Below the pieces are notes generated by a model. The model saw nothing but the letters and a program-made list of their open reading frames with translations, had not been told where the DNA came from and searched no databases. Source: Lingula anatina (taxonomy: Eukaryota > Animalia > Brachiopoda). From it: 64,000 nt of DNA. The stretch is taken from the NCBI GenBank assembly GCA_051362555.1, contig CM120640.1, positions 60,614,788 through 60,678,787 on the forward strand, in the 5' to 3' direction. Of this stretch, positions 42,601 to 45,106 are shown piece after piece (positions within the stretch are counted from its first letter, which is position 1; each line of letters begins with the position of its first letter). The position numbers were made by a program, and so were the translations under genes.

Positions 42601-44329
42601 GACTGATTTTTTTCAGGAAATTAAAACCATTTGGAAATACAATGCCTATCAATTGTATTACTTCTTGTGATGGACACATTTGGTTTGCCAAGTGGGACAA
42701 AAGACTTTACTCCTTTAATCAGCGTTATGAAGAAAAAATCTATCCATTGCAGTAAGTTTTAATAGCAACCTCAATCGATATTTAGATAAAACATTTAGAG
42801 AGTCTGATTTTTTCCATGAAATCATACTTGGGTTAATATCATGGCTGTTATAATATCATTCTAATGTCGCTATAATAGTTTTTTTCATATTTTATACCAG
42901 CAGTTCTTCAATAGGTTTAAAAAAACAAAATAGACTTATATTCATTTAAACCATGCCCTCATGCACTCCATTTCACAGAGGTAATAAAGATTATTATTAA
43001 AATTTAAGAGACAATCAGCAAGATTTCCACCACACTCACTGGATTCTAGACATGACTGCCAGAAAAGGCATATTAAGCAGGGACATGACCTATCAAGTCT
43101 GCACTGTGGGGGCAGCTGGAACAGTGAAAGAATATGCTGTTAGCGTCAAGGTGAGAATTCATAAAAAAATTAAGACAACTCTTTCTTGTAGTATGCATGT
43201 GTGATGTGTCTTTACTTGCTATGTGAGGGAAATAGCAAAAGTGTTTTTATTGATTGGAAATCTGAATTCTAACATTCTGTGTCATAAGTTAGCTTTTATA
43301 ATTCCCATTATATTCAAACTTATTTATTTGCAGAAACCGAAGGCAGACTTGATGCACTGTACAGAAATCAAACCACCAGCAGATGTAAAGGGCAGGGAAA
43401 AATCGCCAGCCAACTGGTTACTATGTACAGGTTGCCATAACAACAAGATTTATGTTGGGGATTCAAGTGGTCAGTTGTCAGTATTGCATTCACCTGGCAA
43501 ATGTTTGCCTGATACTAAAAAGGTAAATATTTCATTTATCATATCCTGTACCTTTATATAGTGTTGTGGAAAGGCCTAAATAATTTATAAAGTGCACATA
43601 ACTTTTGTTTGAATTCTGTGAAGTTAATATTAATCATTTAATATACTCTGTCATAGCCAAAACAGAAAGTAAACATTTCTCATTTGTGAATTAATTTTTA
43701 GGTCCATGCCAGTGCAATCAATAGTGTACAGATTGTTGGTGAGGAAGAGCCAACTATATTCACAGCATCCTCAGATAAGACCATCAAAGTCTGGGACCAT
43801 CAGATGAAACAGGTTAACCAAATATTTCACATGAGCCTTTCTTTTCAGTTGCCTATTTTGAATTCTCAAGTTGGTTTTGTTAAAATGTTAGCCCTGTATT
43901 CATTTAATTCTATGAAAACAGGAAAAGATCTTAAAGGTGGTTAAATGCAAATTATTGAAATATAGAACAACTTCAACATTTCTAAGGAATACCTACAGTC
44001 ACTTCACATTTATATTTCATATATCCTATTAATAATTCATCATTAGAAACTTATACTAAAAAGTATCTATAATATCCATCCACAGAAGTTAAAAAGAAAC
44101 TGAACATTAAAAGCAGTGTTTTTAATACTCTATCTAATAATGAATATTTTAATCCCACAAGAAAACTCAAACTGAATATTTGTATTTGATTGTTCAGATT
44201 GGCCAGTATTTCACCCAGTCTCCAGTGATGAAGCTGGCAGTTCAGCCAAGTAGTGGGGACCAGAGTACAAGGCTTGTGCTGTGTGGAGACCAGCTGGGCA
44301 ATGTCTTGGTACTGGAATGGATAGGGTAA
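21608..44329 (+). CDS. TEP1: Telomerase protein component 1 / vault-associated TEP1 (TROVE, vWA, DUF4062, NACHT, WD40), canonical isoform; about 50 exons
   Basis: Start MYNMKETSV...SSG|LRLG (21608). [88 protein letters not shown]4062: [20 protein letters not shown]...VDLRWGV (28966-29141), [10 protein letters not shown]...SITELE. NACHT Walker A GKPGCGKT (~30785-30808) and Walker [10 protein letters not shown] (~31478-31505). Many GH...WD repeats at 35900-44325. The end [14 protein letters not shown] resembles the vertebrate TEP1 C-terminus. Confidence 0.93.
21676..21710. repeat. (GT)n microsatellite just after the donor of the first TEP1 coding exon
   Basis: gtaagtgtgtgtgtgtgt... read directly. 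Confidence 0.95.
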
Positions 44330-44604
44330 ATAGTATATTTTAAATTCCACACGCAATGTAAGCAAACTCATTAAATCCTGATCCTTTTGGGTCTTTTTCA
44401 CATCATGTTACGATAAGAAATTTATTTTTATTAGCATAAGCTTTCTTAATATATAAATAGACTTTACTGAGTCACTGTGTTTTGGAGTCGGGTAAACTCA
44501 ATTTAAATATATCCAAAAAAATAAGATGTCACATAGTTAGGTAATCTGCAAACTGGTGCATTTCATCAAATCATTTTTGATTTCATGTTTTATCTTTATT
44601 ACAG

Positions 44605-45106
44605 TAATGTAAAGGCACCAGGCACAAAAACAGATGACAAAGTAACCTTGTTCTGGAATCATACATCACCTTTCAGCCAGTGGTACCCAGCAAAATTCAC
44701 ACTAGATGGGCAAAAGTTTAGCTGTGCAGAGCAGTACATGATGTACAGCAAAGCTATGATGTTCAATGACAAAGAAACAGCAGATCTTATCATGAGTACC
44801 AACAGTCCAAAAGAACAGAAGGAATTAGGTAGAAAAGTGAAAGGATTTCAGCCGGATGTGTGGGGGGCTTTAGTAGATGATGTTGTGAAGAAGGCAAATA
44901 TGGCTAAATTTACACAGAATGGTCACTTGAAGAAGTTACTCCTGGGCACTGGATCTAGCATGCTGGCAGAAGCCAGTGCTGAAGATAGGATCTGGGGCAC
45001 AGGTTTGTCAGCAGAGCACAAGCAGGCTTATGATATGGCACAGTGGCCAGGGAAGAATAAGCTTGGTAAAATTTTGTGCGAGGTGAGAGAATCCTGCAGA
45101 AAATAA
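44605..45106 (+). CDS. NADAR (YbiA/DUF1768) domain exon; predicted alternative terminal exon of TEP1
   Basis: FW..TSPFSQWY, F.CAEQYMMYSKA..F.D, PKEQKELGRKV..F...VW, AKFTQN..LK.LLL.TG...LAEAS..DRIWG.G and WPGKNKLGKIL.EVRE are the NADAR family motifs. It is preceded by a pyrimidine-rich tract and acceptor ttattacag (44604) whose phase matches the donor ATA GG|gtaaat at 44325. Confidence 0.9.

Follow-up and report, generated by a model that had tools for sequence, protein, structure and literature searches.

The locus examined here raises the question of whether TEP1 of the brachiopod Lingula anatina truly ends in an additional NADAR domain and, if so, what such a domain could be doing on this scaffold. 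The window, by which the whole analysed stretch of 64,000 nucleotides is meant, holds the following gene, modelled with the guidance of the RefSeq protein XP_013407026.1 of the same species:

21608..45106, + strand: TEP1-NADAR coding region, 56 exons, 8,658 nt, 2,885 aa, no internal stops (spliced model)

The translation agrees with the RefSeq protein at 2,857 of 2,885 residues (99.0%), the rest being 28 substitutions, and a protein search returned a Lingula anatina protein as a 100% match to one TEP1 exon. The model is furthermore matched by all 21 distinct TEP1 joints in the RNA-read joint tables shown, with positions 21608-26000 lying outside read coverage.

The initial annotation had read the upstream exons as TEP1, and this was borne out by profile scans, which recovered TROVE, DUF4062, a STAND NTPase, WD40 repeats and the TEP1 C-terminal propeller:

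22838..26607, + strand: TROVE RNA-binding domain, aa 322-761, over several exons (Pfam PF05731, 362.9 bits; single exons match too)
28967..30378, + strand: DUF4062/TeTIR TIR-like NADase domain, aa 992-1206, with RWG motif (aligned to the human TEP1 structure 11gz_A, E 3e-63)
29625-29627, + strand: TeTIR catalytic Glu1104, equivalent to human E1008
30785..30808, + strand: intact NACHT Walker A motif GKPGCGKT, aa 1260-1267, with STAND NTPase matches on the same exon
35477..44320, + strand: WD40 propellers, about aa 1756-2717, ending in a complete TEP1 C-terminal propeller model

TROVE, DUF4062/TeTIR, NACHT and WD40 thus follow one another on one chain in TEP1 order, DUF4062 and the STAND NTPase having been matched exon by exon, and the C-terminal propeller model PF25048 is matched over positions 1-73 of 73 at aa 2641-2717. 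In a FastTree phylogeny of 33 proteins, the Lingula protein falls in a clade with a support of 96 together with molluscs, nemerteans, Capitella and Priapulus, and thus groups with the lophotrochozoan TEP1 orthologues. Two proteins considered as possible brachiopod outgroups (P0200 and P0250) were placed among the bivalves in the same tree and were rejected as such.

The domain order given for TEP1 in the initial annotation is that of the human protein. The role of DUF4062 had been missed: in TEP1 this region is a TIR-like NADase which makes ADP-ribose (10.64898/2026.05.01.722283; 10.64898/2026.09.21.753143). According to these 2026 TeTIR preprints, the activity has been conserved in TEP1 proteins as distant as those of human, sponge and amoeba, and the human product is linear ADP-ribose only. 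In comparison with human TEP1 (TROVE-vWA-TeTIR/DUF4062-NACHT-WD40; PDB 11gz), the Lingula protein shares the domain order, the RWG motif and the residues E1008, R908 and R976, whereas human R954 is replaced by Lys and 166 extra residues form the NADAR domain (human numbering follows an offset of 893 applied by us). On the basis of the retained catalytic Glu and RWG motif, Lingula TeTIR is predicted to be a NADase, and both this activity and residence in the vault would be expected by analogy with the human protein.

Two variants of the TEP1 stretch were registered. At residue 1047 (window 28966-29142), in the loop which follows the RWG motif, the window has Ile where the RefSeq Lingula protein and human TEP1 have Arg. 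A second, partial RefSeq TEP1 model of Lingula, XP_013380843.2 (808 aa), lies on another scaffold, matches positions 26948-33912 at about 95-100% and is probably an allelic duplicate of this stretch.

The point at which TEP1 meets the NADAR domain is defined by these elements:

44198..44325, + strand: exon 55, the last WD40 exon, ending ATA GG, where other TEP1 proteins have their endpoint
44326..44604, + strand: TEP1-to-NADAR intron, 279 nt, GT..AG, phase 2
44605..45106, + strand: coding part of exon 56, in which one base completes the Gly codon, followed by 166 codons and TAA (short linker and intronless NADAR)
45107..45900, + strand: 3' untranslated region, end approximate (sense-strand depth until about 45.8-46.0 kb; candidate ATTAAA at 45880)

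The coordinates of exon 55, the 279-nt intron, the in-frame completion of Gly and the 166-residue extension are all as first proposed, and the junction reads from 44325 to 44605 which had been named as the decisive check do exist. In eight of nine species-labelled RNA runs, of each of which 6-30% was read, the in-frame joint of exon 55 to the NADAR exon is carried by 52 reads from six of eight runs (X1 4, X4 2, X7 4, X9 17, X6 17, X8 8), the remaining two, X2 and X5, having little or no depth at the joint and being absent from the joint listing. In the stranded runs, the transcript comes from the + strand. The complete joint table of the read set including X1, X4, X7 and X9 gives exon 55 as the only partner of the NADAR exon, and the NADAR exon as the only one to which exon 55 is joined downstream, and no other joint at the NADAR acceptor occurs among the 15 of 49 joints listed for the set including X6 and X8. 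In X6, depth is about 20-23 on either side of the joint and 9-30 at the exonic positions shown elsewhere in the gene. Coverage of the intron, roughly estimated from binned depth, is at most 5% of exon depth in six of seven bins, the seventh, of low depth, giving 17%, and the fused form therefore dominates over the unspliced one; depth at positions 44658-44888, which is inflated by reads of another NADAR, was left aside. The TEP1-NADAR fusion is thus real, spliced, expressed and in frame.

Exon 56 begins with T in the window (44605) and with C in all 52 junction reads. GGT and GGC both encode Gly, and the base in the window is either a rare allele or an error of the assembly. The reads of X7-X9 carry the same joint, though they are mostly 95-99% alike to the window. 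Their many fixed differences under the same species label suggest a divergent population or a cryptic species. Loose read ends at 44717 and 44754, with 38 nt common with exon 56, reveal another NADAR gene, also expressed, at a different place in the genome, whose reads outnumber those of the fusion in X1 and X2.

Without splicing, the reading frame stops at TAA 44327-44329, giving a normal-looking TEP1 end (W-I-G-stop). The idea that a donor site was recruited at an old stop codon is attractive, but it was discarded as not distinctive: on read-through, 13 of the 55 introns of the gene meet a stop codon within two codons, and GTAA is the start of 25 of them all. The sole upstream ATG in the NADAR frame, at 44585, lies within the pyrimidine tract of the acceptor, as had been claimed. 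A direct repeat of 66 nt at 45088-45221 (identity 86%, spacing 68) gives a second copy of the last part of the NADAR frame, with its stop codon, and of the first part of the 3' UTR. Beyond the latter, by about 200 nt, lies the 3' end of an RRM splicing-factor gene on the opposite strand (46114-50054), which converges on TEP1-NADAR and which resembles PUF60. The other neighbours, within 2321-15546 and 55171-59742, are a glycoside hydrolase 31 exon, a Kelch-repeat gene, a 452-codon F-box ORF, an L7Ae-family exon and a C2H2 zinc-finger ORF.

An assembly chimera, or a mis-predicted join of two genes, would explain the fusion away. The reads are short and establish the joint locally, not one molecule spanning TROVE to NADAR, which is what can be said for such an artefact. 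The junction reads come from six runs, however, the RefSeq model has the same join while being 28 residues off the window, and the neighbours are ordinary animal genes, so that this explanation retains hardly any probability.

The product of exon 56 matches Pfam NADAR (PF08719) with 171.7 bits, the match running from position 2 to position 161 of the 163 in the profile, and the five motifs quoted in support of a complete domain (FSQWY, AEQYMM, KFTQN, EAS..DRIWG.G, GKNKLG) are all present. A Pfam scan of the 2,885-aa RefSeq protein places the domain at aa 2735-2882. An AlphaFold model of the Lingula NADAR reached a pLDDT of 97.2, and its only two Foldseek matches with E up to 0.001 were 8bau (TM 0.88, E 1e-12), from Phytophthora nicotianae, and E. 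coli YbiA (TM 0.77). The catalytic positions are the following:

44729-31, + strand: NADAR catalytic E42, equivalent to 8BAU E43
44750-52, + strand: NADAR catalytic K49, equivalent to 8BAU K50
44969-71, + strand: NADAR catalytic E122, in the last strand, equivalent to 8BAU E125

With 8BAU numbered according to a seqres offset of 2, in our reading, and residue roles taken from the available text of PMC11543638, the Lingula domain matches E43, K50, K75, G78, R79, V81, W89, E125, D130 and W133, and differs at Y84 (to F), D86 (to P) and R93 (to V). It is as such a Glu-type NADAR, with catalytic Glu, Lys and last-strand Glu all present, and has Glu122 in place of the last-strand Asp of the BC4488 type. 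A 64-sequence NADAR alignment has 16 invariant columns, which take in the catalytic positions; the three residues at which NADAR departs from RefSeq all fall outside them, and so do the replacement changes seen in the minority of read difference rows listed. Among the homologues found, the closest identity over the NADAR length is at most 54%, and the retention of the whole active site at such a distance implies long purifying selection. A partial, filtered polymorphism count gave three silent and two replacement changes in NADAR and 22 and 22 in the TEP1 body, numbers too small and too filtered to show selection on the fusion. The catalytic site appears intact, and the domain is predicted to be active.

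The fold and Glu-type site are those of the P. nicotianae NADAR (8BAU), YbiA (2B3W) and, in the available text of PMC11543638 and PMC12945103, the sponge NADAR. Whereas 8BAU and YbiA are single small domains, the Lingula NADAR forms the end of a STAND protein with a predicted NADase, and two of the ADP-ribose contacts of 8BAU are replaced. Together, the retained TeTIR Glu and the intact NADAR mean that the protein joins a predicted producer of ADP-ribose to a predicted remover.

The distribution of the fusion was assessed among TeTIR-containing proteins of 1,029-3,276 aa, of which 3,495 were found and the best 120 examined; the named rows among these belong to molluscs, nemerteans, an annelid, a priapulid, a chelicerate, echinoderms, amphioxus, sponges and vertebrates. 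The NADAR profile matched one of the 120, that of Lingula (E 3e-78; next E 2.7), and the fusion is accordingly not the usual architecture of invertebrate TEP1, in agreement with the initial annotation. Of these best 120 of 3,495, 109 stop 8-32 residues past the terminal WD40 motif, two do likewise with a variant motif and eight look truncated, while Lingula continues for 175 residues. In the reverse direction, none of 195 NADAR homologues contained TEP1 sequence, the search for longer proteins having been limited to 292-2,000 aa and thereby blind to the 2,885-aa fusion itself.

It is likely that the NADAR exon was gained in the brachiopod line after its split from molluscs, annelids and nemerteans. 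No other named brachiopod or phoronid is among the 120, and the age of the fusion is therefore only loosely bounded. The best named single-domain NADAR matches are molluscan. In two NADAR trees (252 and 234 domains), the neighbours of the Lingula domain differ and are weakly supported, so that paralogue, retrocopy and transfer are all candidate origins. The third-position GC of the NADAR exon (0.458) equals that of the TEP1 body (0.459) and as such gives no sign of a recent foreign origin. In animals more widely, NADAR has many unrelated fusion partners and has multiplied in molluscs and amphioxus. Proteins with multiple NADARs occur in abalone, limpet and amphioxus, with up to seven matched stretches in a 4,240-aa Haliotis protein.

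These features invite a reading in which a downstream, free-standing NADAR copy was captured as the last exon and has been retained by virtue of what it does itself, with its attachment to TEP1 of little consequence. The restriction to a single lineage, the variety of partners and tandem arrays of NADAR in animals, an intronless exon where the median exon length of the gene is 135 nt, and a join exactly at the old TEP1 C-terminus through a short linker would all be expected of such a passenger. The fused form is, however, nearly the sole form, no joint from another 5' exon was found among the joints listed, and the fusion is common to divergent populations, so that on balance this reading seems rather unlikely, while deserving to be taken seriously.

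As regards the prior record, the same gene model and fusion are already present, as a different allele, under XP_013407026.1 and UniProt A0A1S3J9Z1, with the name 'telomerase protein component 1 isoform X1', in which NADAR is unmentioned. The claim that no such fusion had been described thus holds for the literature, in that no paper was found, and fails for the databases, where the fused protein stands as an automatic model: it is catalogued by automatic annotation and undiscussed in the literature searched. The search for a published description of TEP1-NADAR covered the text of papers outside subscription journals, and an architecture figure could show it. Neither NADAR nor Lingula is mentioned in the main text of the TeTIR preprint, and TEP1-NADAR had no match in one supplement file each of PMC11125620, PMC12945103 and PMC13174449, two of these files comprising only about 6,000 characters. 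A feature search of the Atlas returned generic NADAR clusters only. A link to C. elegans irg-1 is possible, one protein (P0075) being named irg-1-like; no paper on it was found in the literature searched.

For the function of the fusion, the reading that we prefer, at a probability of about 0.45 and hence somewhat short of even odds, is that NADAR on Lingula TEP1 acts as a tethered enzyme which would cut N-linked ADP-ribose off guanine, and perhaps cytidine, in RNA held by TEP1 or by the vault. Its starting points, all of them shown, are a spliced message that outweighs the unspliced form, an open frame of 2,885 aa and the retained catalytic residues. From there, going by the biochemistry of the respective families, TROVE would bind RNA, TeTIR would cleave NAD+ to ADP-ribose, the WD40 propellers would sense a signal upon which NACHT oligomerises, and NADAR would hydrolyse base-linked ADP-ribose. 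More speculatively than any of these steps, the marks might come from guanine-N2 transferases of the pierisin/CARP-1/ScARP type, whether foreign or encoded by the animal itself, and the eraser might be placed on an RNA-binding immune scaffold whose NADase also starves the transferases of NAD+. In the available text of PMC11125620 and PMC12945103, every NADAR family assayed removes guanine-linked ADP-ribose from both DNA and RNA, and some NADARs, the sponge enzyme included, also remove cytidine-linked ADP-ribose. Against a tethered eraser stand the replaced residues of the 8BAU site and the many unrelated partners of NADAR. In addition, 8BAU binds ADP-ribose, so that TeTIR-made ADP-ribose could inhibit the NADAR site, and the second expressed NADAR in the same animal means that NADAR activity need not be tethered.

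The coupling of an NAD+-consuming enzyme to a NADAR has a counterpart in the DarT1-NADAR (DarTG1) toxin-antitoxin system. Lingula differs in having a TIR-like domain, predicted to be a hydrolase, instead of a DNA transferase, in joining the two on one polypeptide rather than in an operon, and in its Glu-type NADAR, that of the bacterial system being Asp-type (BC4488). No transferase domain was found among the window ORFs scanned (outside TEP1, 68 of 71 ORFs of at least 75 aa).

Rather than erasing a mark, the domain might read one. NADAR would then bind ADP-ribosylated guanine in RNA or DNA, or ADP-ribose that is free or made by TeTIR, and would gate NACHT oligomerisation and NAD+ depletion. 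Plant NLRs have integrated domains with such a gating role, and those with a C-terminal integrated domain are likewise STAND proteins with a TIR-type NADase in which, in a single lineage, a further domain has been added behind the sensor repeats. The Lingula protein is NACHT-WD40 and not NB-ARC-LRR, and a sensing role would be assigned to it by analogy. The NADAR domain directly follows the last WD40 strand, the TEP1 WD40s have been proposed elsewhere to sense a signal, the NADAR family binds ADP-ribose, the product of TeTIR, and both the Walker A motif and the catalytic Glu are intact. Weighing on the other side, the fully retained NADAR catalytic residues fit an enzyme at least equally well, and the 111 other complete TEP1s among the best 120 of 3,495 end without a NADAR. 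A sensor is in our estimation improbable. If true, nucleic-acid ADP-ribosylation would be a signal to which both TEP1 and the vault respond, and other animals may use separate proteins for it.

The initial annotation had also suggested a writer/eraser pair, in which NADAR would remove marks written by the vault enzyme PARP4. Human vaults contain both TEP1 and PARP4, in complementary positions, and vault RNA is bound by PARP4 in the available text of PMC10711553, where PARP4 activity is followed as protein automodification. The pairing is further weakened by the specificity of the eraser: as far as the available text of 10.64898/2026.03.31.715305 goes, NADAR hydrolysed guanine-N2-ADPr only and left PARP15-made guanine-N1-ADPr and 5'-phosphate ADPr untouched. 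Moreover, the PARP4-binding residues of the vault shell are vertebrate-only among the species sampled in a representative alignment (PMC12280208, in its available text). Such a pair is consequently very unlikely.

A similarly slight probability is assigned to a small-molecule hydrolase, which would clear a soluble N-riboside, either an ADP-ribose derivative near TeTIR or, as YbiA does, a riboflavin-pathway intermediate. Activity on soluble ADPr derivatives is predicted in the available text of PMC9503650, and the domain passes the TIGR02464 cut-off (158.3 vs 73.7 bits), a model which is, however, domain-wide. The product of human TEP1 is linear ADP-ribose only, which speaks against such an enzyme. 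To our knowledge, animals lack riboflavin synthesis, which also counts against this alternative.

The tethered eraser thus remains the preferred reading. The function of vaults is a long-open question, and the NADase activity of TEP1 has been shown only in the 2026 preprints, with the product in the vault shoulder. The weight of the present clue is limited by its occurrence in a single lineage so far, and a fusion known from one named species hints only weakly at a shared function. With regard to the trigger of TEP1 and to the physiological role of animal NADARs, the expressed fusion suggests base-linked ADP-ribose on RNA as a candidate substrate and ligand. As such, it would link the biology of vaults to the repair of chemically tagged nucleic acids.
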